DNA from: a bacterium
GTDB lineage: Bacteria > Hydrothermota > 32-111
Reading direction: 5' to 3'
Assembly (NCBI GenBank): GCA_050239825.1
Contig: JBFXGO010000006.1
Coordinates: forward strand, 4,690-68,689
Length of the DNA: 64,000 bases
Program-made: the position numbers and the translations under genes
Part shown: one piece after another, positions 1 through 53,215 of the stretch
Numbering within the stretch: position 1 is the first letter of the stretch
How the letters are laid out: each line of letters begins with the position of its first letter
Notes under the pieces: generated by a model
What the model saw: only the letters and a program-made list of their open reading frames with translations
Told to the model about the DNA's origin: nothing
Databases searched by the model: none

Positions 1-536
1 TGAAGCATGTTCTCAGGCAGGATCCGGATATAATTCTAATGGGAGAAATCAGAGATATGGACACTATGGATGTGGCTATAAAAGCCGCCGATACTGGGCA
101 TCTTGTGTTATCTACACTTCATACGCTCAATGCCTCTGAGACAATAAACAGAATCCTCTCCTTCTATCCTCCTCATCAGCAGCAGCATATAAGAGTGCTT
201 CTTGCAACAACTCTTGTCGGAGTTCTGTCGCTTCGTCTTCTTCCAAGAACGGACGGGAAGGGCAGAGTTCCGGCTACAGAGGTGATGATAAACACACCTA
301 CAATAAAAGAGTACCTGCTGGACCCGATAAAAACTCTTCTCATTCCCACGGCGATAGATGAGGGGCAGCAGTATCAGATGCATACATTTGATCAATCAGT
401 TATGAGATTGTATAAGTCGGGTATAATTACCTATGATGACGCCCTGCAGTCTGTGACCAATGTCGATGAGTTCAAATTGAAACTCAGAGGCATAGAATCA
501 AGCGAGGGCGATGCATTTAACACATTTAGGGACTGA
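1..536 (+). CDS. pilT: Type IV pilus retraction ATPase PilT/PilU family, C-terminal part (5' end upstream of window)
   Basis: Frame is open from the window edge. The translation [41 protein letters not shown] matches the conserved PilT Asp-box/His-box region. The tail is typical of PilT (GIITYDDAL). Confidence 0.85.
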
Positions 537-543
537 GGTATTT

Positions 544-1146
544 ATGTCATTAGTCAATTACGCGAAGAAAGAGATCATCTGCAAAGTGGTTTATTACGGT
601 CCCGGAAGGTCGGGAAAAACAACAAATCTGCAGTATATCTTCAGTAAAATACCAGTTGAAAAGCGAGGAGAGATGACATCTCTTGCCACTGAAATGGATA
701 GGACGCTATTCTTTGACTTTCTTCCGTTTGATGTGGGCAAAATCGGAAATTTCAATGCAAAATTTCAGCTCTACACGGTTCCCGGGCAGGTGTATTATGA
801 TTCAACAAGAAAACTTGTCCTTCAGGGTGCGGACGGAGTCGTCTTTGTCGCAGATTCACAGGTTGACAGAATGGAAGACAATATTGAGTCATTTGAAAAT
901 CTTGCCCTGAATCTGAAAGAGAATGGATTCAGCATTGACACGATGCCTCTGGTTGTTCAGTACAACAAGAGGGACCTTCCGAATGCGGTTGATATTCAGT
1001 CGATCAAAAGCGCGCTTCAGTTGAGGGATGACTGGAAGACATTTGAAGCTGTGGCAACAAAAGGTGTCGGAGTTATAGAGACCCTTAAAGATGCAATGTT
1101 TACGGTTATTAAGCAACTGACAAGAAGGTATGATAACAAAAGATGA
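544..1146 (+). CDS. mglA: MglA-type Ras-like small GTPase (motility/polarity switch)
   Basis: Read from the ATG at 544 (MSLVNYAKKEI...). P-loop is YYGPGRSGKTTNLQYI. The MglA-specific switch II is LYTVPGQVYY. NKRD guanine-specificity motif is present. By eye it is near-colinear with Myxococcus MglA over the full length. Confidence 0.9.
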   Translation: MSLVNYAKKEIICKVVYYGPGRSGKTTNLQYIFSKIPVEKRGEMTSLATEMDRTLFFDFLPFDVGKIGNFNAKFQLYTVPGQVYYDSTRKLVLQGADGVVFVADSQVDRMEDNIESFENLALNLKENGFSIDTMPLVVQYNKRDLPNAVDIQSIKSALQLRDDWKTFEAVATKGVGVIETLKDAMFTVIKQLTRRYDNKR

Positions 1147-2813
1147 ATGATAGCGACATTAAAGAGTTTCAGGAGATATTCGGTACAAGGCAGAGGCACA
1201 GAGATAACTCTGAGCTTCCCGAAAATCCTTTTCTGAAATCTGAGCTTTCCTACGCAGTCTCCACCGGAACTCTTACATCAAAAGTCATAGTGGTGCAGTC
1301 AGCCGACAGTTCTGCGGAAATATTTGCCGATAAAATGGCAGAATCCATCTCATCTTCATTTCCAGATTTTTATATTTTCAGAATAGACCTAAAAGAGATG
1401 GTCGAGCTGATGAAATTCAACGCACTTTCGAAATACAAAAAATTTCTTGTTTATTCAAATCTTCTGATAATCGAGAATCTTGAGCAGATAGAGAAGAATA
1501 AAGTAGTTTACGATGCCATTGTAGAAATCATAAACTCGCTTCACGCCACTTCATATCTGTTGGTAACTGCGAAAAAGAATCTTGAAGATATTGGCATGGA
1601 TATGAAGACAAGAAACTTCTTAATGACGGGTAAATTCTTTGCGCTCAAAGATGATTTGAAGAAGCAAGAAAACAGTCCGATCGAGGATTTTGCCGATTTT
1701 ATAAGTCAGGTCAAGCAGGAAGCCGGAGTGCAGGAGAATCTCAACGAGGGCGAGAAACGGGAGGAGTTCATCGAAAAACTCTATATATGGGAAATGAAAG
1801 GATTCAATGTAGACAGACTGAAGAATGTGATCAATAACAATGACATCTCCCTCATAAAAAAAGAATTCAGCGATTTCACCGGAAAAATAAGAGAGCTTGT
1901 GGAACTGCATAAAGATTACGGATTGCTTAACATCAGGGAGTTCAAGAAAGAATCTAGGGAAATCGAGGAGATTCTCTTTGATCCGGATAAGCTTGAAACA
2001 ATCAAGGCGAAAACGGAGGAATTGAAGGAAAAGATAAAATATCTCAGGATGTTCAGGAATAATGTGAAGCTTTCGATGACCTATGAAACATTTATAACGG
2101 ATGCGACGAACCGCTCAGCGTACAACAAAATAACCGAGGTAATCAACAATGAAAATGCCGAGAAGATAATTATTCTAACAGGGACAAACGGCACTGGAAA
2201 GACGCATCTGCTTAACAGCGTGTGCAATTACTTTCCGGATAACAGAATAATCTTCCTGGATAAAACCAATATTGATTTAGCGGTAAACTCTTCCTATGTG
2301 ATGAGATATATGGAAGACCTTTCGATGATACTGATAGATGATTTTGACATTCTCTTTGAGAACAAAGCGAACAAGGCGGTTCTTAAGAATGTTATTATGA
2401 ACAATGTGCCGAAAATTATATCTATGTATAGAAAATTCAGCATTGACGACAGGGAGCTTTTGAATTATCTGAACAAATTTCAATCATTCAACATTCAGCC
2501 GACATCTCTGTTTATAAAGAAAAATGTGTTCAAAACAATGTTTTCGCGTCTTGGAATCCAGACGAATGATTTCATAATGAATTACATGCTTGATACCATT
2601 GAATCTCCTCTTTCATCCATAGAGAAACAGTTCGCACAGCTCTCACAGAATTTATCCGAAGGAGTTCCGACTATAGAGGCGATTGACAGAATATTTCCCC
2701 CGGTTGAATCGAAGAAAGTAGCATCAAAGAAAAAAGGCGAATACGACACATCTCGGCTTATAAAAGAGTGGATAAATGAGCATGACAGGCTCTATGTCGA
2801 ATTTGAGGTCTAA
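1143..2813 (+). CDS. Uncharacterised 556-aa protein with two tandem DnaA/Hda-like AAA+ modules (N-terminal degenerate, C-terminal with intact Walker A/B) joined by a charged helical linker
   Basis: C-module: TYETFITDATNRSAY...IIILTGTNGTGKTHLLNSV...MILIDDFDILFENKANK parallels DnaA domain III (TFDNFV.G.SN..A, GG.GLGKTHLL, LLIDDIQF). N-module: VIVVQSADSSAEIFADKMAESI...LLIIENLEQIEKNKVVYDAIVEIINSLHATSYLLVTAKKNLEDIG has the same layout but lacks GKT and DD. It overlaps mglA by 4 nt. Confidence 0.6.
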   Translation: MNDSDIKEFQEIFGTRQRHRDNSELPENPFLKSELSYAVSTGTLTSKVIVVQSADSSAEIFADKMAESISSSFPDFYIFRIDLKEMVELMKFNALSKYKKFLVYSNLLIIENLEQIEKNKVVYDAIVEIINSLHATSYLLVTAKKNLEDIGMDMKTRNFLMTGKFFALKDDLKKQENSPIEDFADFISQVKQEAGVQENLNEGEKREEFIEKLYIWEMKGFNVDRLKNVINNNDISLIKKEFSDFTGKIRELVELHKDYGLLNIREFKKESREIEEILFDPDKLETIKAKTEELKEKIKYLRMFRNNVKLSMTYETFITDATNRSAYNKITEVINNENAEKIIILTGTNGTGKTHLLNSVCNYFPDNRIIFLDKTNIDLAVNSSYVMRYMEDLSMILIDDFDILFENKANKAVLKNVIMNNVPKIISMYRKFSIDDRELLNYLNKFQSFNIQPTSLFIKKNVFKTMFSRLGIQTNDFIMNYMLDTIESPLSSIEKQFAQLSQNLSEGVPTIEAIDRIFPPVESKKVASKKKGEYDTSRLIKEWINEHDRLYVEFEV

Positions 2814-4412
2814 ATGAGCATAAGGGGAAATCTTAAAGAGGCATCTCTTCCTGATGTAATTCAGCTTCTTTCACTCGGAAGAAAAACGGGAGTTCTAAGC
2901 GTATCCGACAAGAAAAATTTCGGAGACATTTTTTTTAAAGACGGTAAAATAATATATTGTTCGATAGTCAACAGAGAGGAGCGCATCGGCAATCTTCTTG
3001 TCAAGTATTCGGATATCACAAAGGAGCAGCTTGAAAAGGCTCTTGAAATCCAAGAAGAGATGAAAGGCATGAAGAGACTTGGAGATATACTTATTGAATC
3101 AGGGTACATAACGCAGGATATCCTTGTTGACAGAATAAAAAAACAGATAATCGACTCAATTTTCACACTGCTCACCTGGAAGGAAGGATTTTTCAATTTT
3201 GAACCGGATATCCCGCCCGTGTCTGAAACCATAACGGTTGAGCTTGAAGCAGATGATATTCTGCTTGAAGAGGCGCGCAAGATAGACGAATGGTCGATTA
3301 TAGAGAGTGAATTGCCGAGTGAAAAAGTCATACTCGTAAAAACAAGCATCAAAGATGAAAATACTCTCCAGGAAGAGAATGAAAAGTATGTTTATTCTCT
3401 TGTCAACAACAGGCTCTCCGTAAAGGAAATATTCGATAAGACTGTTTTGGGAAAATATGAAACGGGGAAGGCTATCTATACTCTTCTGAAAGTCGGCTAC
3501 ATCTATTCGGGAGAGGAGAAGCAGTTGGAAGTTTCAACAGATGTGCAGGCAAAGGTGACCGAACACCACAATCTCGGGCTTGCATTCCTTCTAACTGAAA
3601 TGTTTGAAGAGGCATTGCGCGAATTCAGACACATAATTCAAATTGACAAGACTAACATAAAGGCATATTTTTATATAGCGCTTATCTATTTCAGGCTTAA
3701 AGAGTATGAAAAAGCACTCTCTTCGTTTGAGGAGCTTTTAAAGCTGGGGGTTGCCAATGTTGCTCTCTTCAATAATATTGCGCTGACATTTGAGAGACTC
3801 AATAACTTTGAAAGAGCAGACGAATTCTACGAAAGAGCTCTCAAACTGGAGCCGGAAAATGCGAAGATACTCTCCAATTACGGAATTCTTTCATTTAAAA
3901 TGAATCTTTTTTCCGAAGCCGAAGAGAAGCTTAAAATGGCTCTGAAGATAGACCCGAACCTCAAGCATGCGTCATTCTTTCTTGCGCTAGTCTATTTTGA
4001 GAATGGCATGGTAAGCGAGTCAACAAACATTCTCTTCTCTCTCGTCAAGCAGGACAATACGATATGGCAGGTCTATTACAACATTGCCGAAATATACATG
4101 ATAAGCGGCAAATCAGAATCTGCGGAATCAATGTTCAAGAAGGCGGTTGAGACATCTAATTCAGATCCTATACCGTACAAAGCGCTTGTTGAGTATTATT
4201 TTACAGAGAAAAATTTTGATGCGGCAGAGAATGTGCTTGAAGAAATAATAAATCTGGGCAAGGCTGATTTTGAAATATTCTACAAGATGGGAAACCTGAA
4301 ATACAGAAAGGGAATCAAGAAGGATGCAGTAGAATACTGGGAAAGAGCGCTGGAGCTTCAGCCGACCAATGAAATAGTGAAACGCACTCTGGAGACTGTG
4401 AAAAATGGTTGA
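2814..4412 (+). CDS. PATAN (DUF4388) domain protein with C-terminal TPR repeats
   Basis: N-terminus GNLKEASLPDVIQLLSLGRKTGVLSVSDKKNFGDIFFKDGKIIYC is the typical DUF4388/PATAN signature. The C-terminal half holds multiple 34-aa TPR-like repeats (AYFYIALIYFRLKEYEKALSSFEELLKL etc.). It abuts the preceding stop codon. Confidence 0.8.
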   Translation: MSIRGNLKEASLPDVIQLLSLGRKTGVLSVSDKKNFGDIFFKDGKIIYCSIVNREERIGNLLVKYSDITKEQLEKALEIQEEMKGMKRLGDILIESGYITQDILVDRIKKQIIDSIFTLLTWKEGFFNFEPDIPPVSETITVELEADDILLEEARKIDEWSIIESELPSEKVILVKTSIKDENTLQEENEKYVYSLVNNRLSVKEIFDKTVLGKYETGKAIYTLLKVGYIYSGEEKQLEVSTDVQAKVTEHHNLGLAFLLTEMFEEALREFRHIIQIDKTNIKAYFYIALIYFRLKEYEKALSSFEELLKLGVANVALFNNIALTFERLNNFERADEFYERALKLEPENAKILSNYGILSFKMNLFSEAEEKLKMALKIDPNLKHASFFLALVYFENGMVSESTNILFSLVKQDNTIWQVYYNIAEIYMISGKSESAESMFKKAVETSNSDPIPYKALVEYYFTEKNFDAAENVLEEIINLGKADFEIFYKMGNLKYRKGIKKDAVEYWERALELQPTNEIVKRTLETVKNG

Positions 4413-5223
4413 TAATGATTATCAGATGCTTATTGACTATATAAGCAGGCATATAAGCATAGACGGAAATCTATACAAAGAGAAACCTTTCAAAAGAAGG
4501 CTGAATGTCAGAATGCGCCATAATAATATGACCGAATATCGCGAGTATCTTGATTTTTTAAGAACAAGCTCGGAGGAGCTTCGAAAATTAAAGGACACGT
4601 TAACAATAAATGTAACCCGATTCTACAGAAACAGAGAGACTTTTGAATATCTTGAACAGTTCATAATCAAAGATATTTTCAAAAAAAATCAAAGAATAAG
4701 GATATTAAGCGCGGGGTCCTCAACAGGAGAGGAGGCTTACACAATTTCCATGATAATAAACAACAACTTCAGGAATTCTTCCCAAAAGTGTGAAATTGTC
4801 GGTATTGATGTAGACACACTGTCCGTGGAGAGGGCGAAAATCGGAATATACAATGAATTTTCCTTCATGGAGTTGAAGGCGGAGGAGATTGATAAATATT
4901 TCAGAAAGAGCGGAGCTCATTTTGTTTTGAGTGAAGAATTGAAAAAAAATGTTGAGTTCATAATAATGGATATAAAAGAGAGTGATGCTCTTTTAAGGTT
5001 GGGAAAATTTGATATGATCGTCTGCAGAAATATTTTGATATATTTTTCAAAAGATTTTCAAGAGAAAATAATATCCGATTTTCATAAAATGCTAAAAAAT
5101 GACGGATACCTTGTTCTCGGAAAAGTGGAGATACTCACTGGACATGTGAAGGAACTTTTTGAAACAGTGAACAGAAAGGAAAGGGTTTTTAAAAAAATTG
5201 CTTATACACATACGAATAGCTGA
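4405..5223 (+). CDS. cheR: Chemotaxis protein methyltransferase CheR
   Basis: Carries the TINVTRFYRN motif and the SAM-binding motif RILSAGSSTGEEAYTISMII, plus CRNILIYF. Overlaps the upstream gene by 8 nt. Confidence 0.9.
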   Translation: MVDNDYQMLIDYISRHISIDGNLYKEKPFKRRLNVRMRHNNMTEYREYLDFLRTSSEELRKLKDTLTINVTRFYRNRETFEYLEQFIIKDIFKKNQRIRILSAGSSTGEEAYTISMIINNNFRNSSQKCEIVGIDVDTLSVERAKIGIYNEFSFMELKAEEIDKYFRKSGAHFVLSEELKKNVEFIIMDIKESDALLRLGKFDMIVCRNILIYFSKDFQEKIISDFHKMLKNDGYLVLGKVEILTGHVKELFETVNRKERVFKKIAYTHTNS

Positions 5224-5677
5224 CGCGAATATTGCATTTGAGGATGATGTATTGAAGACAATCGGTCTCGGTTCTTGCGTTGCGGTGACTCTTTATGACA
5301 GAGAAAAAAAAATAGGAGGAATGATCCATTTTATGCTACCCAGCAAGATATTTTCCAAAACATTCTTCAATCCTTACAAATACTGCGACACGGGGCTGAC
5401 AAATTTGATTATGGAGATGGAACAACTCGGAGCAAGAAAATACAGAATAGAGGCAAAACTTGTCGGAGGCGCCAATATGTTCTCCCTATTTATCAAGAAT
5501 ATAGAAGAATCAATAGGGTACAGAAATATTGAGATGGCTAAGAAAATTCTTCGAGAGAACAGAATTCCCGTGATCGCCGAGGATACGGGAAGCGACTACA
5601 GCAGGTCGGTTGAATTGACAGTGAAGACGGGCATAATAAAAGTCACTTCATATAAGAATGGGGAGATTCAGTATTGA
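5198..5677 (+). CDS. cheD: Chemoreceptor glutamine deamidase CheD
   Basis: Carries the TIGLGSCVAVTLYD active-site Cys motif, MIHFMLP and KLVGGANMF. TTG start overlaps cheR by 26 nt, so the exact start is uncertain. Confidence 0.85.
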   Translation: MLIHIRIADANIAFEDDVLKTIGLGSCVAVTLYDREKKIGGMIHFMLPSKIFSKTFFNPYKYCDTGLTNLIMEMEQLGARKYRIEAKLVGGANMFSLFIKNIEESIGYRNIEMAKKILRENRIPVIAEDTGSDYSRSVELTVKTGIIKVTSYKNGEIQY

Positions 5678-6717
5678 AGGTATACAGAGTACTTGTTGTT
5701 GATGATTCGCTCTTGATGCGGCAGATAATAAAGGACATAGTAAATTCCGAGAAGTCTTTCATTGTAGTCGGAGAAGCGGCAGACGGAGCCGAAGCAATAG
5801 AAAAATTCAAACAGCTTGATCCTGATATTGTCACTCTTGATATAGAGATGCCGAAAATAAACGGACTGATAAGCCTTCAGCAGATACTCAAAATAAAACC
5901 TGTTCCGGTTATCATAATAAGCGCATATTCCAAAGTCGGATCGAAGATCGCTCTTAAAGCTCTGGAATTCGGAGCATTTGACATTGTTGAAAAACCGTCC
6001 GGGTCTATTTCTATAGACATCGCGGTTAAAAAAGAAGAGATAATACAGAAGATGATCTGCGGAATAAAAGCGGACATAAGCAGGCTTTTACATGAATTCA
6101 CGGGACTATCTGACAAATCGGATAAAAAGATAAGGCAGACGGAGAAAGCATCTAATCTCATTGCTATAGCATCCTCGACGGGCGGTCCGAAGTCGCTGAT
6201 GGATATAATACCGAGAATTCAGTCAAACATCAATGCTGGAATCGCAGTGGTGCAGCACATGCCTGCAGGATTCACCCGTTCATTTTCCGAAAGAATGAAC
6301 TCAATGTCCAATCTGAATGTTTATGAATCTTTTGAAAATTGCGTGCTCAGGAACGGGGACTGCGTTATAGCACAGGGAGGAAAGCACACGGTTTTCGATG
6401 AAGACGGAATAATACACCTTTCCGATGACCCTCCATATCATTCCGTAAAACCTGCTGCTGATATAATGATGCTGTCTGCGGTAAAGCATTTCAAGGAAAG
6501 AATAATAGGTGTTGTGCTAACAGGTATGGGCAAGGACGGTTCTGAAGGCGTGTTCATAATAAACAAGATGGGCGGCACAAATATAGCGGAGTCAAAGGAG
6601 ACTTCCGTTGTTTTCGGAATGCCGAAAGCCGCAATAGAAACAGGCAAAGTCGATTTCATTCTTGATAGGGATAAAATCGCGCGAAAAATAGAGGAGTTGG
6701 CAAATGAAATGGCTTGA
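5674..6717 (+). CDS. cheB: Chemotaxis response regulator protein-glutamate methylesterase CheB
   Basis: N-terminal receiver (VLVVDDSLLMR...DIVTLDIEMPKINGL). C-terminal methylesterase motifs IASSTGGP, VQHMPAGFT and GMGKDGSEG. TTG start overlaps cheD by 4 nt. Confidence 0.9.
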   Translation: MKVYRVLVVDDSLLMRQIIKDIVNSEKSFIVVGEAADGAEAIEKFKQLDPDIVTLDIEMPKINGLISLQQILKIKPVPVIIISAYSKVGSKIALKALEFGAFDIVEKPSGSISIDIAVKKEEIIQKMICGIKADISRLLHEFTGLSDKSDKKIRQTEKASNLIAIASSTGGPKSLMDIIPRIQSNINAGIAVVQHMPAGFTRSFSERMNSMSNLNVYESFENCVLRNGDCVIAQGGKHTVFDEDGIIHLSDDPPYHSVKPAADIMMLSAVKHFKERIIGVVLTGMGKDGSEGVFIINKMGGTNIAESKETSVVFGMPKAAIETGKVDFILDRDKIARKIEELANEMA

Positions 6718-7549
6718 AGCAAAAAAAGAGATTGAAGCGCATCTTGAAAAACTTGAAAATATTGTTGCTACGGGAAAATACGGAGAAGAACATATCAAGA
6801 GCGAACTCATGGAAATATACAAACAGGTGATAGCCATAAACAATTTTGTCAAACATTCTGACGCGAGAATCAAAAATCTGGCTAAACACATAATGAACCC
6901 GTCGGTAAGCAAGGACGGCCTCAAGACATTTGTTCAGTCTATGAAGATAGCGCCTGTAGATCTGACAACTTATATCGACAAGGGCTGGAATTTTATGGTT
7001 GACGAACAGTATGATGATGCCGTTGAGATACTTGAGAAAGCGATAAGCCTGTCGCCGAATGATGTCAAATCTCTGGGGCTTCTGGGTTGGGCGTATATAC
7101 ATAAGGAAAGATACGATGATGCAATGAGCATTTTTCAAACGGTTCTTTCTCTTGATCCGGAGAATGCCATTGCAAAGAACAATCTTGGTTTTGTCTGCTT
7201 CAAAAAAGGCATTTTCGGAGAGGCGATAGAACATCTCACCTCTGTGATTAAATCCACGGAAGACAAGATGTCTCTCATATATGCACATTTTTACCTCGGT
7301 TTGATTTATCTTGACAGAGAGATGTATGAAGATGCAATACGATTCCTTCTGAAAACAATAGAACTGGGGCCCAATCACATGGAGGCATACTATTACCTTG
7401 GATTGGCTTATTTTGAGTCGGGAAAGGAGAGCAAGGGCATCAAAACATTGAAGGACCTTATCAAGAAAAACCGATACAACAGGTGGGCTCAGAAGGCAGA
7501 GGAAAAACTTAAAGAGTTAACCGGAGAAAAAAATGAAAAAGAAAATTGA
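6704..7549 (+). CDS. TPR repeat protein
   Basis: Repeated TPR consensus segments (YDDAVEILEKAISLSPNDVKSLGLLGWAY, YDDAMSIFQTVLSLDPENAIAKNNLGFV, YEDAIRFLLKTIELGPNHMEAYYYLGLAY). Overlaps cheB by 14 nt. Confidence 0.8.
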   Translation: MKWLEAKKEIEAHLEKLENIVATGKYGEEHIKSELMEIYKQVIAINNFVKHSDARIKNLAKHIMNPSVSKDGLKTFVQSMKIAPVDLTTYIDKGWNFMVDEQYDDAVEILEKAISLSPNDVKSLGLLGWAYIHKERYDDAMSIFQTVLSLDPENAIAKNNLGFVCFKKGIFGEAIEHLTSVIKSTEDKMSLIYAHFYLGLIYLDREMYEDAIRFLLKTIELGPNHMEAYYYLGLAYFESGKESKGIKTLKDLIKKNRYNRWAQKAEEKLKELTGEKNEKEN

Positions 7550-8270
7550 CCTTCAGGAGATTCTCGGCGGCGAAAAGCCGGAAAAAAAGCAGAGGCAGAA
7601 AAAAACGGAAAAGAGGGAGAACTCCAAAATAAATGCAACTGTCGAAAAGAAGATGGAAACTCCTATATTATTGACGGAAAAAAGAAATCCAGATCCTGTC
7701 GTCAATAAGGTTCAGAAAAAGGAAGACTCAAAAACAGTACAGCAGGAGCCGGTCAATATAAGACAGATGAAAGACATCTCGGAGAAGAAGGATGAATCTG
7801 ATATTGTGAAGGAGTATGTGACATTCCTGTTGAAGAAAGAAGAGTATGCAATTGACAGTGATTTTGTGAGACAGATTATAAAATACAAAAAAACTATAGA
7901 TATTGGATTGAAGAGCGACCTTTTCTTTGGCGTTACAAATATGAAAGACGGAGTCCTGCCTCTTGTTGACTTCAGAAAAAAATTCGGCATGTCGGAAGAG
8001 AGAAAAGAGGAAGGTTCGATAATTATTCTTCAGATTGATGATCTTAGAGTTGGAGTTTATGTGGATTATCTTGTGGGAATTGTGCGGTTCAAGGACTCTG
8101 ACATAAAACAAATCCCCCCTTTTCTTCCCGAAAGACAGCTTGCGTATGTGACGGGTATCGGAATAAAATCAGGTAAATTCAAAAAAATAATCATTATTCT
8201 TAATCATTTGAATCTCTTTACAAGGGATGATATAAGGGAAATGAAGAGGATTCCGGAGATGTATAAGTGA
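7533..8270 (+). CDS. CheW-like coupling protein with a ~95-aa Lys/Glu-rich N-terminal extension
   Basis: The C-terminal ~145 aa (EYVTFLLKKEEYAIDSDFVRQIIKY...GVLPLVDFRKKFG...IIILQIDDLRVGVYVDYLVGIV) follows the CheW domain pattern. The N-terminus is low-complexity K/E/Q-rich. Confidence 0.75.
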   Translation: MKKKIDLQEILGGEKPEKKQRQKKTEKRENSKINATVEKKMETPILLTEKRNPDPVVNKVQKKEDSKTVQQEPVNIRQMKDISEKKDESDIVKEYVTFLLKKEEYAIDSDFVRQIIKYKKTIDIGLKSDLFFGVTNMKDGVLPLVDFRKKFGMSEERKEEGSIIILQIDDLRVGVYVDYLVGIVRFKDSDIKQIPPFLPERQLAYVTGIGIKSGKFKKIIIILNHLNLFTRDDIREMKRIPEMYK

Positions 8271-14163: not shown

Positions 14164-14586
14164 ATGAAAAAATGGATTATTGGAGTTCTAATTTTTATCG
14201 CAACTGTTTCGATAGGTTGCTTCAAAAAGAATGACGAACAGGCTGTTAAAAATGTCATTATTGGAAACATCGAGGCGATGAACAGAGAAGATATCAAATG
14301 GTATATGTCAACAATTTATGATGACGGAACAGACAATTATGATTCACTTGAGGTGATGCTCACTGATATTTTTGCCAAGTTCAGCATTGAAATTGAAATA
14401 CTAAGCATTGAGATAGTTGAAATAGGAGATGATGTCGCAAAAGCGCGTGCAAAGACCTCAACCAAAGTGGATGGAAATTATCCCAACAAAAATAGCAAGG
14501 CGACATCGGTGCACTATCTTGTAAAAGACAATGGAGTATGGAAGATACAGAGCACTATAAATGAGGAAGTCAAATACTTTGATTAG
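14164..14586 (+). CDS. Lipoprotein with NTF2/SnoaL-like fold
   Basis: AAGGAG SD sits 6 nt upstream of the ATG at 14164. Signal peptide with lipobox is MKKWIIGVLIFIATVSIGC. AVKNVIIGNIEAMNREDIKWYMS...VHYLVKDNGVWKIQS resembles the NTF2-like pattern. Confidence 0.6.
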   Translation: MKKWIIGVLIFIATVSIGCFKKNDEQAVKNVIIGNIEAMNREDIKWYMSTIYDDGTDNYDSLEVMLTDIFAKFSIEIEILSIEIVEIGDDVAKARAKTSTKVDGNYPNKNSKATSVHYLVKDNGVWKIQSTINEEVKYFD

Positions 14587-15916
14587 AGTTGTCCTTTATT
14601 TTTTTGAATTCATCCTTTCCGCATAAATATCCGTACAAAAGAGGATATTTTGTTTTTGCCCTTGAAGCTATCAGATCGGATAATTTTCTTATCTCAAGCT
14701 GGGCATGCCTATCGGAACGCAATCTGACAAAATGATAGAGCTCTCTTGAGTTCATCTTTACAAGAACGGCTCTTTTTGATGCATTTAAAGCTGTGTACTG
14801 TAGAATCCCGCCATTCTGCCTTCTAATAATTTTGTCTGTCTTCATCGATAATTCGGCTATTGCATTCAATTTTTCTTCAAGAGGTGTATTGAGGAATGAT
14901 TCAGGGATATATGGTTTTTCTTTCAATGAGTATGCCTGAGGTATAATTGTCGACATCCTGTGTCTCTTCAGCTGTGCAAAACAAGAGGCGGAGCAGTAAA
15001 CGACAAATTTCACATCCGGCATCTCAAACTCCCTCGGGATGCGGTCATACTCATTGACCGAAAGAAGCAGTGATGCAATTCTTTCGTATGAATTCTCGGC
15101 AAGTCTCGCAGAATGCTTTAACTTTTCTCCGTTTCTGGAAAAGTTTAAAGTATTAATCAACTCCGCCTCCTGATTATTTGAGAAGACCAGCATCTCTACT
15201 GCATCAGCAGGAAACTTATGTTTCACCGAAGAATAAGATTTTTTCAAGAAATTTCTTTTATCTGTGTACTTGATTATAGAAGGAGCAATTCCTTCAACCT
15301 GTTTCAAAAGTGCGTCGCCGATATCCTTCAACTCGCATGAATCCTGAGACCTCAGGTCGGAAATAAGGTACTCAAGCTCTCTTCCGTTTATAGTGAGTCC
15401 GCATTGGGTGTTTGTCGAAAGCGGAAGAAAATATCTGGCATCCTCATTTGTCTCTGTCTTCGAAAGATTCATTTTTGAAAGATAATTTTTAGCATTGGAA
15501 TATTCATCAAAGCATCTTCCGCAGAAAGATTTATATGCCTTTATTGCTTTGCCGTCGCCTTCGATTTCAACCGGCAGATGATAACCTGTATCAAAAGAGA
15601 CATATCTTTGGGATTTTTCAGTATATGATGCAAGTCTGTGGCTCTGTATGTGTTCAATGGCAGCGCGGGAAATCTGCATCAGGTCAAAATTGAAGACGGA
15701 ATGTTCGGCAATTGATGCGTGGCCAAGGCCGAATACAATTGTTTCATTTGATTTTCTGGATTTTTCCACATCAACTCTAGCCTCGTTTCTTAAAATGGGA
15801 ATCTCCTTTTCCGACCTTGAAATTCTGGCATACGCGGCTGATATTGTTTCAGGTGTCAGAGATTTATCTGTAAGACCATCCGAATCCACATTGTATCCGG
15901 AAAGCATTATTTTCAT
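14570..15916 (-). CDS. thyX: FAD-dependent thymidylate synthase ThyX, fused tandem (double-domain) form, 448 aa
   Basis: N-half: ISRSEK...GHASIAEHSVFNF...SRAAIEHIQSHRLASYTEKSQRY. C-half: AQLKRHRMSTIIPQ...YHFVRLRSDRHAQLEIR. The ThyX motifs are split over two repeats. Confidence 0.8.
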   Translation of the reverse strand: MKIMLSGYNVDSDGLTDKSLTPETISAAYARISRSEKEIPILRNEARVDVEKSRKSNETIVFGLGHASIAEHSVFNFDLMQISRAAIEHIQSHRLASYTEKSQRYVSFDTGYHLPVEIEGDGKAIKAYKSFCGRCFDEYSNAKNYLSKMNLSKTETNEDARYFLPLSTNTQCGLTINGRELEYLISDLRSQDSCELKDIGDALLKQVEGIAPSIIKYTDKRNFLKKSYSSVKHKFPADAVEMLVFSNNQEAELINTLNFSRNGEKLKHSARLAENSYERIASLLLSVNEYDRIPREFEMPDVKFVVYCSASCFAQLKRHRMSTIIPQAYSLKEKPYIPESFLNTPLEEKLNAIAELSMKTDKIIRRQNGGILQYTALNASKRAVLVKMNSRELYHFVRLRSDRHAQLEIRKLSDLIASRAKTKYPLLYGYLCGKDEFKKIKDNSNQSI

Positions 15917-36381: not shown

Positions 36382-36454
36382 GGGTATCATTTTTCTGCAA
36401 ATGCTTATTTAATAAAGAAGCGGATTGTTGATTTTTTTATTACAGCAGGATATA

Positions 36455-38020
36455 ATGAAAAAAGCAATAAAAACGGAGGAAATACTGAACGAAAAGAAGA
36501 ATGGAAGCAAGGAAAAGTATTCTGAAAAGATAATAACAAATAAAATCGCTATTCTGACAATTGTTTTAATGTCTGCTTATGCTCTTCTTTCATTTAATCC
36601 TCTTTTAAGCACCGGAGGAGACAGCGCAACCTACATTCTTCTTGCAGACTCATTCAGAGAGGGCAGACCGATGCAGTACAGCTTAGACGGATCTTCTCTG
36701 AATCCAACATACCCACCGATATATCCTTTTCTTTTGTTTCTTGTTTCATTGGTCTTCGGAGCGAGAAACATAATTGCATTTAAAGCTCTTTCTTTTGTCG
36801 CATTTGTTTCTCAAATATGCATCTTTTACCTGCTGACAGAGTATTTCACTAAGAATAATCTAAAAAGACTGCTCGGGCTTATGCTCTTTGCATCTCTGTC
36901 TGTGCAGATACAGCTTTCAAGCGACATTCTTTCCGAGTCAGTCTTCATGGCATTTCTTCTCGCTTCAATTTATTTTTACATTAAGCAAATCCATGACAAA
37001 AGCAATAATTCACTTATCATTTCGCTTATCTTTGCTCTTCTTGCTTCTTACACAAGAGAAGCCGGAGTTATATTGTTTCCTATCTATTTTATTAATGAAT
37101 TATTTGCAAAGAACATAAAAAATCTTTTACTTATAGCATCAGCTTTCATTCTCAGTCGGGTATGGTCTCTTGTGCTTATATTAAATGGAGTAGAAAGTGT
37201 CTATTTAAAACAGATTATTTATAAAGATTGGTATAATATTTCAGAGGGAGCTCATACTCCCTTCAGCTTAGTAATTCGTTATTTGAATTCGTTGTTCCAA
37301 CATACAATGAATATTTTCAATCAACTTTTTAGAACATCAAGCAGGTTCATGAACATTATTGTCTCTTTAGTAATATTAGCTTTTATGTCGGCAAAACAAA
37401 ATATGAGAAAGTTTCCTGAATTTGAGATGATATATTTTGTGTTGTCAGTCTTAAGTATCCCTATTTTTCCATATCTCGACATAAGATATACCGTTGTTTC
37501 ACTTTTTTCTGTTATACTTATTCTTATAAAAGATCGCGAGTTTGAAAAAAAGCGTAAGCTAACTATATATATATATGCATTTATGTTAATTGCAATGATT
37601 ATAAATAACATATATATTCAAATGAAATACTTTATTCCAGATAATTTAAAAGTTGTGAAAGAAAGCAATTTAATGGATTTTAAAAGCAATACACATTTGT
37701 ATCCTTACGAGTATCAGGTCTATTTTGATTTGGCAAAACAAGCCGAGAACGAGTTTGATGAATCGGCTCTGTTCATAACAAGAAAACCCTCTCTCTTTAC
37801 TCTCTTTGGCAACAGGGATGCGATAATATTTCCATTTACGAACGAAGAGGAGGTTCTTGACACATTCTTTTCTAAACATATAGGTGATTATCTCGTTTAT
37901 GATCAAAAAAGCAAAGAGATGAGGATACTTGAAGATTATATTGCTTTAAAACCCGAAAAGTTTTCCATGATATTCGTATCATACGAGGATGAAATTGTCA
38001 TCTTTGAAATATTGCCGTAA
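36455..38020 (+). CDS. Polytopic membrane protein, GT-C (ArnT/PMT_2-like) glycosyltransferase candidate; paralogue of 51686-53215
   Basis: More than 10 predicted TM segments. The first loop holds an acidic motif STGGDSATY. It shares [10 protein letters not shown] and SSDIL segments with the 51686 gene product. The start could also be the TTG at 36425. Confidence 0.55.
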   Translation: MKKAIKTEEILNEKKNGSKEKYSEKIITNKIAILTIVLMSAYALLSFNPLLSTGGDSATYILLADSFREGRPMQYSLDGSSLNPTYPPIYPFLLFLVSLVFGARNIIAFKALSFVAFVSQICIFYLLTEYFTKNNLKRLLGLMLFASLSVQIQLSSDILSESVFMAFLLASIYFYIKQIHDKSNNSLIISLIFALLASYTREAGVILFPIYFINELFAKNIKNLLLIASAFILSRVWSLVLILNGVESVYLKQIIYKDWYNISEGAHTPFSLVIRYLNSLFQHTMNIFNQLFRTSSRFMNIIVSLVILAFMSAKQNMRKFPEFEMIYFVLSVLSIPIFPYLDIRYTVVSLFSVILILIKDREFEKKRKLTIYIYAFMLIAMIINNIYIQMKYFIPDNLKVVKESNLMDFKSNTHLYPYEYQVYFDLAKQAENEFDESALFITRKPSLFTLFGNRDAIIFPFTNEEEVLDTFFSKHIGDYLVYDQKSKEMRILEDYIALKPEKFSMIFVSYEDEIVIFEILP

Positions 38021-50124: not shown

Positions 50125-51699
50125 ATGGACAAGAAAAGAGTTGTGATAATAGGCGGAGGTCCTGCCGGACTAACTGCCGCGAATCTTCTTTCAAAAAATG
50201 AAAATTACGATATAATTATTTTTGAAAAAGAAAACTTGCTGGGGGGCATAGCCAAAACTGTTGTATACAAGGGTAACAGGATAGACATTGGCGGACACAG
50301 ATTCTTTTCGAAATCCGATTGGGTGATGGATTTCTGGAAATCAAAATTCCCGATACAAGGCAGACCTTCCAAGGATGACATTATTCTGAATAGGGATGTC
50401 AATCTGTCGAAGGAGGCGGGTGCGCCCGACCCTGAAAAAGAGAGCAAAACCATGCTTGTGAGAAACAGGCTTTCAAGAATCTTTTACCTCAGATCTTTTT
50501 TTGATTATCCTGTTTCTCTTAATCTGAACACGATAAAAAATCTTGGTTTTATAAGAATGTTAAGAATAGGTGTTAGTTACTTGGCAATAAAAGCTAATCC
50601 GATAAAAAATGAAAAATCTTTAGAAGATTTTTTCATTAACCGATTCGGAAAGGAACTTTATAAGACATTCTTTAAGGATTATACTGAAAAAGTTTGGGGA
50701 ATGAAATGCACTGAAATTGAACCCGAGTGGGGAGCCCAAAGGGTAAAAGGCCTTGATATTACAAAGACGATACTCCATGCAGTCAAAAAAGTTTTTGCGA
50801 GGGAGCATGATATAAGTCAGAAATCCACAGAGACGAGTTTGATAGAGCAGTTTCTTTACCCAAAACTCGGACCCGGTCAGTTATGGGAGTATGTGGCGGA
50901 AGAGGCAATAAAAAACAATGTTAAAATAATCTTGAATGCAGAAATTGTCTCCATAGGAAGTTCGGACCACATCATCAAAAATGTGAGAGTAAAAGATGCA
51001 TCTTCAAATCAGGAGAAGGATTACGAATGCGACATTCTTATCTCAACAATGCCGATAAAAAATCTGGTAGAGGCAATGGGAGAGGCGGCGGAAGAAGATG
51101 TCAAGAGAGTTGCTTCCGGACTTCAATACAGGGACTTTCTCACTGTCGGACTGCTAATGAAAAAACTCAAAATTGAGAATAAAACAAACAAGCGCACTAT
51201 GAACAATATTATCCCGGACAACTGGATTTATATACAGGAGAGAGATGTGAAGGTCGGCAGGGTGCAGATATTCAACAACTGGTCTCCGTATCTTGTCAAG
51301 GATTTAGACAATATCTGGATGGGTCTTGAATACTTTGTCTCTGAGAATGACGAATTGAGTTCGAAATCAGATGCAGAGATGATAAATTTCGCTGTGAATG
51401 AGATGGAGAAGATAGGTTTTTTAAACAGAGAGGATGTCATAGATTCGACAATATTAAGGATGGAGAAGGCGTATCCTGCTTACTTCGGCACATATGCCTA
51501 TCTTGATAAAGTGAAGGATTGGTCACTGAGATTTGAAAATCTTTACCTTATAGGAAGAAACGGAATGCACAGATACAACAATATGGACCATTCCATGCTC
51601 TCTGCAAAGGCGGCTGTCGAGTCCATACTGAATGGATTTACAAAAAAAGCGGATATCTGGAGCATAAATACAGAGGAGGAGTATCATGAAAAGAAGTGA
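50125..51699 (+). CDS. FAD/NAD(P)-binding oxidoreductase (amine oxidase / UDP-galactopyranose mutase-like superfamily)
   Basis: N-terminal dinucleotide fold [14 protein letters not shown]...FEKE...GG and a C-terminal [15 protein letters not shown]. Exact activity unknown. Confidence 0.75.
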
Positions 51700-53215
51700 A
51701 AAAATCCTTTTGACGGCGATAAATCTGTCTTATTTTCTTTTATTTATAATTCTCCTTCCTTTTTACAGGCATCAGATAAATCCGGATTCAATATCTCTGA
51801 TAAACATAGCAAACAAGTATTTAAGCGGCGAATTTATGCTTGCTGTCAACGGATACTGGCCTCCTCTTATTTCATGGCTTCTATCCTTTTTTATGCTCGT
51901 TTTCAAAAATCCGATAATTGCTTTCAAAGCCCTCTCTTTCTTTGTCGGTCTCTTTGCCCTGTTTTCTTTTAACAGGCTTTTATCGGCGTTGAAAACAAGC
52001 TTTACGGCGAAGACTCTCTCTCTTGCGGCTTCTGTGGCGGGTGTCCTCTATTTTTCTCTCACGGTAGCGTCTTCCGACCTTCTTGCCGCATCCCTGATGC
52101 TCTATTATCTCTCTCTTATCATTGAAGAAAACTCTTTCAAAAACAGATTTTTTTTTCTGAAAGTGGGTATTGTGGGAGTTCTTCTCTACTTTTCTAAAAC
52201 CTACGGATTCTATTTTTTCATCTTTCACTTTTTATTCGCGGCTCTGATGGAAGCTCTTTCGGGAAAGGAGAAGGTGAGGACAGTGAGAGTCTCTGTATTT
52301 GCCCTTCTCGTTTTTTCCCTTTTGTCCGCCGCCTGGATTGCGCCTATAAGCATTAAATACGGTGTTTTCACTATCGGCACTACAGGAAAGTTCAATTATG
52401 CGTCATTCGGACCCGATGCGGCGGCTGTGCGTAGGCCTTACATTCATGCAATGGCGATTCCAGATTCAATGAGCACAAGCAATTGGGATGACCCTTCAAA
52501 TGTTTATGAAGAAGCATGGAGCCCCTTCTCTTCCAAAGAGAATATTCTGCATCAGGCAAAGCTTCTGAAAAAAAACATACCATGGATGATTGACCTGTAC
52601 AATTCATTCTCATATCTCTCCCTTCTGATTATAGCGGCGTCCCTTCTGTTGCTCTTCATGGGCAGGAGGAGAGAGCAGATTCTGATTCTTCTTTCTGCCT
52701 CACTGCTCTCATCGGCTGGATATTTAATGATTGCATTTGAGCAGAGGTATCTTTGGGTCAATTTTTTCATACTGATACTTCTGTCGGTTATAATACTTGA
52801 TGAATTGAAAATGAAGGAGAGAGCCAAGACTGTTGCGCTTGCATTGATTCTGTTGACTTTCTTGATAATGCCCTTGAGAAATCTTTACTCCGACCTAAAT
52901 GTAAACAAAGACATTTATGATTCGTACATGAGTCTTGACAAAAAAGATGTGAAGGGGAATACTGCTTCGGATTCAAACAGGGCATTCATGACAATACTCT
53001 CTTTCTATCTGAAAAATCACTATTATGGCGCATTCGGAAAGGAGATAGACCAAGAGACATTTCAAAAGGAACTGAATGATAATAAAATAGAATACTATTA
53101 TCTTTTTGACAGGAAAGACACTGCTCTGATAGATGTACTGAAAGAAAATTGGGAAATACATCATGAGTCGGAGAGGTTCACCGTACTGAAAAGAACAGAT
53201 GCCAAAAAAGAATGA
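51686..53215 (+). CDS. Polytopic membrane protein, GT-C (ArnT/PMT_2-like) glycosyltransferase candidate
   Basis: More than 10 TM segments. The first loop is [27 protein letters not shown] and SSDLL segments are shared with the 36455 gene product. It is embedded in the aminosugar cluster. Confidence 0.6.

Follow-up and report, generated by a model that had tools for sequence, protein, structure and literature searches.

The gene at positions 1143 to 2813 (forward strand) of the window, by which we mean the whole 64,000-nucleotide stretch of Hydrothermota contig JBFXGO010000006.1 analyzed here, encodes a protein of 556 residues in which two DnaA/Hda-type AAA+ modules flank a conserved helical domain and are followed by a short conserved C-terminal tail. 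An initial annotation, made from the sequence alone, had proposed an open reading frame (ORF) at these positions, and we reproduced its coordinates and length exactly. The ancestral form of this tandem DnaA-like protein was an internally duplicated, complete DnaA domain III, with a helical domain inserted between the two copies and a peptide tethered at the C-terminus. The present-day protein may well be a non-replicative descendant of DnaA domain III that acts as an ATP-dependent adaptor or switch in the MglA polarity module controlling type IV pili, a reading we hold with about even confidence. Although its fold is a known one, the protein has an architecture, a middle domain, a tail, and a gene context that are new.

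The second AAA+ module (the C-module) is the live ATPase half of the protein. With the Pfam family Bac_DnaA (PF00308; cut-off 23 bits) the whole protein scores 36.4 bits, a value due to the C-module, and the NCBIfam model of Hda (TIGR03420) matches residues 311-502 with an E-value of 1e-16. The latter match reaches 61.2 bits against an equivalog cut-off of 194.8, far short of Hda membership, and the NCBIfam model of DnaA (TIGR00362) reaches 44.7 bits against an equivalog cut-off of 343.9. When a C-module profile built from 11 homologues was compared with PDB sequences, it retrieved only DnaA, then DnaC, with 2z4r as the best match (E = 1.3e-9) in an alignment that spans both core and lid. The initial annotation had likened this half to DnaA domain III with intact Walker A and B motifs, and both parts of that description hold.

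Residue conservation, expressed here and below as counts or mean column identity in an alignment of 17 homologues, separates what the C-module has kept from what it has lost. Its Walker A motif (G347-T354) and Walker B motif (L397-D400) are invariant or nearly so: K353, T354, and D399 are present in all 17 sequences, and D400 is an aspartate in 15 of them. The catalytic arginines of DnaA are another matter. Position 442, which aligns with the arginine finger of DnaA Box VII, is occupied by Y, H, F, M, L, or I, and the sensor-2 arginine of Box VIII aligns with an invariant P-L-S stretch in which S491 is found in 17/17 homologues, so that the initial annotation was right to report both arginines as missing. 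A C-module that would bind nucleotide and hydrolyze it poorly is consistent with this loss, as judged from the aligned sequences. Two conserved basic residues lie close to the finger position, R437 (R or K in 16/17) and K445 (K or R in 14/17), and loss of hydrolysis is therefore plausible but unproven.

The first module (the N-module) is the eroded half, and its sequence signal is marginal. Bac_DnaA matches it with an E-value of 0.002 and 18.7 bits, below the cut-off, over a stretch (residues 83-145) that surrounds the Walker B remnant. Aligned profile to profile with hhalign, the N- and C-modules match at P = 1e-3 in the correct register from the P-loop to Walker B, and a search of a 176-sequence set with the N-module profile found the DnaA-type modules of distant family members at E-values of 1e-5 to 1e-6. 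The same profile found nothing significant among PDB sequences (the best match being coatomer, E = 0.35), and hhalign returned no match between it and the single N-module sequence of one distant member, P0025. Because sequence alone cannot place the N-module, its assignment had to go through structure. An AlphaFold2 (AF2) model of residues 1-182 taken alone, built with 13 homologues, has a predicted local distance difference test score (pLDDT) of 87 and a predicted template-modeling score (pTM) of 0.84, and it displays five strands in the AAA+ order without a lid. In a Foldseek search of the PDB with this model, the top 18 matches are all DnaA domain III or Hda, among them 8btg, 8bv3, 2hcb, 3r8f, 1l8q, 3bos, 5x06, and 2z4r, with E-values down to 1.5e-7 and query-based template-modeling scores (TMq) of 0.57-0.67 for the predicted model; FtsH, IstB, Vps4, and DnaC rank below them. 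The structural evidence for a DnaA/Hda-type AAA+ fold in the N-module is thus clear, insofar as the predicted model is correct.

The earlier suggestion that the N-terminal half repeats the layout of the C-terminal half, with GKT replaced by SSA and DD by EN, therefore fares better by predicted fold than by sequence, and the alignment confirms both replacements. The GK[ST] of the P-loop has given way to S-S-A, the Walker B acids read E, K, or S followed by N, and the lid is missing relative to other members of the family. One basic position of the dead module, R157, is R or K in 15/17 homologues. Profile and structure searches run on each half separately recovered a fold of the DnaA/Hda clade for both, and the protein did not turn out to belong to a known family of unrelated function, the database labels attached to its relatives being generic.

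A scan of species-representative genomes places the family in 67 loci, all of them in metagenome-assembled genomes (MAGs), from candidate division WOR-3, Stahlbacteria, TA06, Cloacimonadota, Edwardsbacteria, Gemmatimonadota, and UBP2. The less eroded relatives reveal where the architecture came from. Distant members (P0024 and P0025 at 27% identity, P0045, P0050, P0056, P0064, P0080, and others) are laid out as a Bac_DnaA module, the middle domain, and a second Bac_DnaA module; in P0050, P0056, and P0064, Bac_DnaA matches two stretches each with E-values of 1e-55 to 1e-60 (8e-60 in P0050). The Gemmatimonadota member P0080 carries all DnaA motifs in both modules, including RLRSRFEGGL and NIRELEG, and retains the arginine finger and the sensor-2 arginine in both. 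Its N- and C-modules are 38% identical over 260 residues (E = 5e-65). Since the two modules of P0080 share all motifs and this degree of identity, the architecture arose by internal duplication of DnaA domain III.

A P-loop census of 66 distinct complete proteins from loci L001-L072, in which the GK[ST] core was scored within the expected region, puts the state of the window protein in context. GK[ST] is present in both modules of 40 proteins; the N-module is dead in 11 (the clade of the window protein and L037), the P-loop of the C-module is degenerate in 7 (by a change of K to R, for example), and the C-module is absent from 8. The initial annotation had described the first module as catalytically dead, which is correct for the window protein and does not extend to the family: the dead N-module is a derived feature of this clade and not of the architecture. 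That some clades have lost one module and others the other is in keeping with a requirement for a single working site. It follows from the census that the invariant core of the family consists of one DnaA-like module, the middle domain, and the tail. Short members of 379-390 residues (L020, L021, L038, L044) and of 448-495 residues (L031, L067, L068, L070) lack a second ATPase module and consist of an intact DnaA-like module followed by the middle domain and the tail. In two MAGs (L061, 6371-8200; L066, 1948-3771), an LptB-like ABC ATPase (GPNGAGKS … LYLGKKFKL) forms a fusion with an N-terminal DnaA-like module and the middle domain, and the fusion genes lie between lptC/lptA-like genes and rpoN, the usual place of LptB.

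The region between the two modules had been taken for a charged, probably coiled-coil linker. It is instead a discrete, conserved helical domain (residues ~183-305) that recurs in other proteins. This middle domain of about 110 residues is all-helical in the predicted structure, bears the signature EKLY[VI]WEMKGFNV..LK ... LFDPD, and has a mean column identity of 0.74, ahead of the live ATPase core (0.67) and the dead N-core (0.55), which makes it the most conserved region of the protein after the C-terminal tail. An exhaustive profile search with the middle domain retrieved 257 cluster representatives at E ≤ 1e-3, and these fall into two groups. Members of the first share the layout of the window protein; members of the second are large proteins with 3-23 tandem copies of the unit (P0026, P0029, P0034, and about 100 others, up to 3,143 residues long), at least one of them from a Thermoplasmata archaeon. 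Among the repeat proteins are some whose N-terminus resembles DUF835, some that include a DnaA-like ATPase, and some that end in a zinc ribbon. The domain matched nothing among PDB sequences (the best being eIF5, E = 0.045) and no Pfam family in any of 20 members.

The tail shows the highest conservation of the whole protein within the clade of the window, with a mean column identity of 0.85. In the window protein it reads KEWINEHDRLYVEFEV, ending in …W…DRLYVEFEV; elsewhere in the family it takes forms such as …NWELESDRLIESL, …EWPLLEEKLMDEY, and …ELIEDNY, and the family-wide signature is a tryptophan followed after a few residues by [DE]R[LI]-h-x-[DE]-[YFL]. The linker that precedes it is very variable in length across the family and has low pLDDT over residues 522-536 in the window protein, as the linker of a chemoreceptor tether would. 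In chemoreceptors, an unstructured linker leads to the tether for CheR and CheB, which obeys the rule xZxxZ (Z being F, W, or Y) at the very end of the chain (PMC7390727). We considered the tail as such a pentapeptide tether and rejected it: the window protein ends in VEFEV, which breaks the rule, and 64 of the 66 members break it as well.

The Pfam scan returned neither DnaA domain IV (Bac_DnaA_C) nor any other DNA-binding domain, in agreement with the initial annotation, which had noted the lack of a domain IV-like helix-turn-helix. Hda carries an N-terminal clamp-binding motif of the QL[SP]LPL type, and none was seen by eye in the first 30 residues of the window protein. Relatives are labeled in databases as 'DnaA/Hda family protein', 'AAA family ATPase', or 'DUF815', and some as 'chromosomal replication initiation ATPase DnaA'. 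Neither the family nor a DnaA-like part of an MglA module is described in anything that literature and full-text searches returned, and the supplements of a 2014 survey of small GTPases do not describe the tandem-DnaA family. The architecture had been put forward as novel; this stands in that it is undescribed in the literature, and falls in that it is not unique to the window and belongs to a sizeable, unstudied family.

The gene context supplies the case for a role in motility. The start of the tandem-DnaA gene overlaps the stop of mglA by 4 nucleotides, and its own stop directly abuts the start of a gene for a protein with PATAN and TPR domains (Table 1). The GTPase encoded upstream is a true MglA orthologue, matching Myxococcus xanthus MglA (6h17) over its full length with an E-value of 1.3e-72. 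By tblastn of the window neighbors against all loci, the PATAN/TPR gene, cheR, cheD, cheB, and the second TPR gene lie downstream in most loci that are long enough, mglA lies upstream in about 40 related loci, and pilT in about 25. The pilT gene, truncated by the edge of the window, is complete in related loci. The recurrent order, (PilT)-MglA-(MglB)-tandem-DnaA gene-PATAN/TPR-CheR-CheD-CheB-TPR, is kept in most of the 67 loci long enough to display it, across at least six candidate phyla, and pilN, pilO, and secretin genes occur upstream in related loci. The recruitment into an MglA/Che context proposed by the initial annotation is thereby upheld at the level of gene order. We infer membership in the MglA module from this conserved genetic linkage.

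A Roadblock/LC7 gene of the MglB type, encoding 135-146 residues, stands immediately upstream of the family gene in 32 loci (L014, L016-L019, L022, L024, L025, L028, L030, L032, L034, L035, L040-L042, L045-L056, L059, L060, L064, and L072) and near it in 4 more. The two genes are separated by -7 to +4 nucleotides and mostly overlap by 4. No Roadblock/MglB gene was found in the six frames of the window or of the loci of its clade. The most constant neighbor of the tandem-DnaA gene is the PATAN gene: even in L043, a locus from Gemmatimonadota, the family gene comes directly after a stand-alone PATAN gene, with TPR, CheW-like, and CheC-like genes nearby, and neither cheRDB nor mglA was detected within this locus of about 14 kb. 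Residues 57-111 of the PATAN/TPR protein in the window, which form the helical insertion of PATAN, match NF053729.1, an MshE-related motif that binds cyclic di-GMP (c-di-GMP), at 49.6 bits against a cut-off of 38 (E = 2.5e-13). As this match lies above the cut-off, the PATAN/TPR protein may sense c-di-GMP.

Table 1. Positions in the window of the tandem-DnaA gene, the parts of its product, and the neighboring genes (HMM, hidden Markov model).
Feature	Position	Strand	Evidence
Whole gene, tandem DnaA-like AAA+ protein	1143..2813	+	ORF list, Pfam, NCBIfam, homologue alignment
N-module, degenerate DnaA/Hda-type AAA+ alpha/beta core, residues 1-170 (predicted fold)	1143..1652	+	AF2, Foldseek, hhalign, HMM
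Walker A remnant of N-module, VQSADSSAE (V51-E59), GK[ST] core gone	1293..1319	+	homologue alignment, hhalign
Walker B remnant of N-module, LLIIEN (L107-N112)	1461..1478	+	Bac_DnaA stretch 83-145, homologue alignment
Middle domain, all-helical, residues 183-305	1689..2057	+	conservation, profile searches, predicted structure
C-module, DnaA domain III-like AAA+ core and lid, residues 311-517	2073..2693	+	Pfam, NCBIfam, profile vs PDB
Walker A of C-module, GTNGTGKT (G347-T354)	2181..2204	+	homologue alignment
Walker B of C-module, MILIDD (M395-D400)	2325..2342	+	homologue alignment
C-terminal tail DTSRLIKEWINEHDRLYVEFEV, residues 535-556	2745..2810	+	conservation, family signature
PilT-type type IV pilus ATPase gene, 3' part, cut by window edge	39..536	+	ORF list, Pfam
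mglA, Ras-like polarity GTPase, TVPGQ motif; likely true start 544	511..1146	+	ORF list, Pfam, PDB match
PATAN (DUF4388) and TPR gene	2814..4412	+	Pfam, NCBIfam
cheR 4405-5223, cheD 5198-5677, cheB 5674-6717, frames overlapping	4405..6717	+	ORF list, Pfam
TPR gene 6704-7549, product of 281 residues; CheW-domain gene with N-terminal extension 7533-8270	6704..8270	+	ORF list, Pfam

Neither a chemoreceptor nor CheA is encoded among the genes of the cluster or the 20 largest other ORFs of the 64-kb window, and no RomR/RomX or FrzCD-type receptor was seen in the gene cluster. The other large ORFs are housekeeping genes (SecA, LigA, DXS, RNase Y, ThrRS, and others) or lack a Pfam match, as is the case at E ≤ 1e-5 for those at 36425-38020 (+; 531 residues) and 51686-53215 (+; 509 residues). 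On the reverse strand, an ORF of 448 residues (14570-15916) contains two matched stretches of the ThyX (Thy1) family; 448 residues seems long for a ThyX protein, and a tandem duplication is possible.

The conserved and tightly packed gene order places the protein in the MglA (MglB) pathway together with the PATAN/TPR protein, and on this ground we favor the adaptor or switch of the MglA module introduced above. In such a scheme, the live module would bind ATP and work as a slow switch rather than as a processive motor; one DnaA-type site would sense the nucleotide and the other would have a structural part. Following the example of other tandem AAA+ proteins and of Hda with DnaA, the dead module may be the intramolecular partner of the live one. 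Docking of other proteins would fall to the middle domain and the C-terminal tail, and our best guess is that the tail docks onto the TPR domain of a neighbor. Through such an assembly, the pilus motor could respond to the nucleotide state of MglA and perhaps also to c-di-GMP, with the PATAN/TPR protein as its sensor.

Comparison with known systems brings out what is shared and what is not. Both modules of the window protein have the fold of DnaA domain III, and the motifs are complete in less eroded relatives such as P0080; unlike DnaA, the window protein lacks domains I, II, and IV, and hence the domain that binds DnaA boxes, has two modules in one chain with a helical domain inserted between them and a putative docking tail, carries non-basic residues at the finger and sensor-2 positions, and lies in a motility rather than a replication context. 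The parallel with Hda is that Hda likewise has a DnaA domain III-like module and no DNA-binding domain, its role being to partner another DnaA-type module; it is also the best NCBIfam match, and two of the entries among the top structural matches of the N-module are 3bos and 5x06. Hda supplies an arginine finger to DnaA and is a single module of about 230 residues, whereas the window protein has 556 residues and two modules, so that any finger relation in it would be intramolecular. With p97/Cdc48, NSF, and NVL, the protein shares the presence of two AAA+ modules per chain, one of them possibly silent. A Foldseek search with the whole model aligned about 600 columns to p97, Cdc48, and NVL with a template-modeling (TM) score of about 0.2, a low value owed to the different domain arrangements. 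Those proteins belong to the classic AAA+ clade and the present one to the initiator clade, and there is no evidence in the window protein for hexameric rings or substrate threading. Membership in the classic clade was considered and discarded: the score for PF00004 is 21.0 bits against a cut-off of 21.2, the TM score is as low as stated, and the modules are closer to DnaA and Hda.

The polarity module of M. xanthus (MglA, MglB, RomR/RomX, the TPR effector SgmX, and the Frz chemosensory system) is a further system for comparison. It has the same MglA GTPase, a gene of the MglB type is present in 36 family loci, and TPR proteins and enzymes of the CheR/CheB type are linked, with type IV pilus genes adjoining; the clade of the window differs in having no MglB nearby. 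We know of no AAA+ or DnaA-like component in the Myxococcus polarity system, and literature searches found none either. An association of MglA/MglB genes with PATAN genes has been published (PMC4316618, citing Makarova 2006), without mention of a DnaA-like ATPase encoded between the two. Regulators with a PATAN domain are reported in a preprint to interact with the type IV pilus motor (bioRxiv 10.1101/2021.06.11.447907).

Other roles have to be weighed against an adaptor or switch. The protein might regulate the nucleotide cycle of MglA directly, as a GTPase-activating protein (GAP), a guanine-nucleotide exchange factor (GEF), or a factor resembling a GDP-dissociation inhibitor (GDI), and so replace the MglB that is missing from the clade of the window. 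The overlap of the gene with mglA and the lack of a Roadblock gene, both in the window and near the gene in its clade, are what such a regulator would lead one to expect. The MglB-type gene that lies between mglA and the family gene in 32 other loci also speaks for it. On the other side, both proteins are present together there, so that the tandem-DnaA protein is an addition to MglB and not an alternative to it. The dead module and the loss of MglB do not go hand in hand either, as many members without an adjacent MglB keep both modules intact, and we know of no AAA+ protein that acts as a GAP or GEF of a small GTPase. We regard direct regulation as unlikely. The protein could also be the substrate or scaffold of the adjacent chemotaxis-type enzymes in an adaptation system that has no receptor, a cytoplasmic AAA+ protein methylated and deamidated in place of a chemoreceptor, with the tail tethering the enzymes as the NWETF pentapeptide does. 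The three che genes follow the family gene in most of the 67 loci with no chemoreceptor or CheA in the cluster or among the 20 other large ORFs, and the tail, acidic and aromatic (LYVEF in the window protein), sits at the extreme C-terminus behind a variable, flexible linker; two members even end in VWEEY and TWEEY and conform to xZxxZ (rule from PMC7390727). Those two are, however, the only ones of 66 with the motif at the true C-terminus, no methylation-site consensus was found by eye in the sequence, the tail is conserved also in Gemmatimonadota loci without che genes nearby, and the chemoreceptor and cheA genes may sit elsewhere in these genomes, all of which makes this role decidedly unlikely in our estimate.

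Two further explanations would sever the protein from motility altogether. It could be a replication regulator of the Hda/DnaA type whose motility neighbors are there by chance, as its best profile and structure matches (DnaA and Hda) and the replication-initiation names that some sources give to its relatives would have it. We find this very improbable, given that the scores fall far under both equivalog cut-offs, that Pfam detects neither DnaA domain I nor domain IV and no N-terminal clamp-binding motif is apparent by eye, and that the order with mglA, PATAN/TPR, and cheRDB is kept across phyla with overlapping frames. A nucleoside triphosphatase (NTPase) of the STAND or defense type is scarcely credible: the faint matches to nSTAND3, nSTAND5, and KAP P-loop families that suggest it are confined to the P-loop region and lie below the cut-offs, PADLOC matches are weak and at the level of the P-loop, and the surroundings are those of housekeeping and motility genes, without the features of a defense island.

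Several observations weigh against the adaptor or switch that we favor. Gene linkage is evidence of a shared pathway and not of a molecular role, and every carrier of the family is an uncultured MAG. R437 and K445 could still support hydrolysis in the C-module. The lpt-rpoN context of L061 and L066 indicates that the family is not tied to motility alone, and the presence of che genes without an obvious substrate in the cluster leaves room for another role, that of a substrate of CheR, CheD, and CheB. A bolder scheme, improbable and speculative as we see it, casts the cluster as a self-contained polarity controller without chemoreceptor or CheA. The DnaA-derived ATPase would be the signaling scaffold at its center: MglA (and MglB) would read its ATP state, CheR, CheD, and CheB would tune the ATPase covalently, and the conserved C-terminal tail would recruit those enzymes or the TPR partners. 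Type IV pili would then be steered by an adaptation system of the chemotaxis kind whose 'receptor' is a converted replication-initiator ATPase.

Whatever its partners, the family carries an unnamed helical domain of about 110 residues that links these bacterial proteins with large repeat proteins, at least one of which comes from Thermoplasmata archaea, and in several candidate phyla the label 'chromosomal replication initiator DnaA' given to its members in MAGs is likely a systematic misannotation. Since the clades differ in which of the two modules has decayed, nature has in effect run an experiment on the need for each nucleotide site. In the prevailing view, DnaA and Hda serve replication alone, and the MglA switch has so far been understood only through its GTPase regulators in Myxococcus. 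If the protein is indeed an ATP-dependent adaptor or switch of the MglA module, it would clearly exemplify how an AAA+ module of the initiator clade was put to new use in controlling cell polarity or motility, and the MglA switch would gain an ATP-dependent component.

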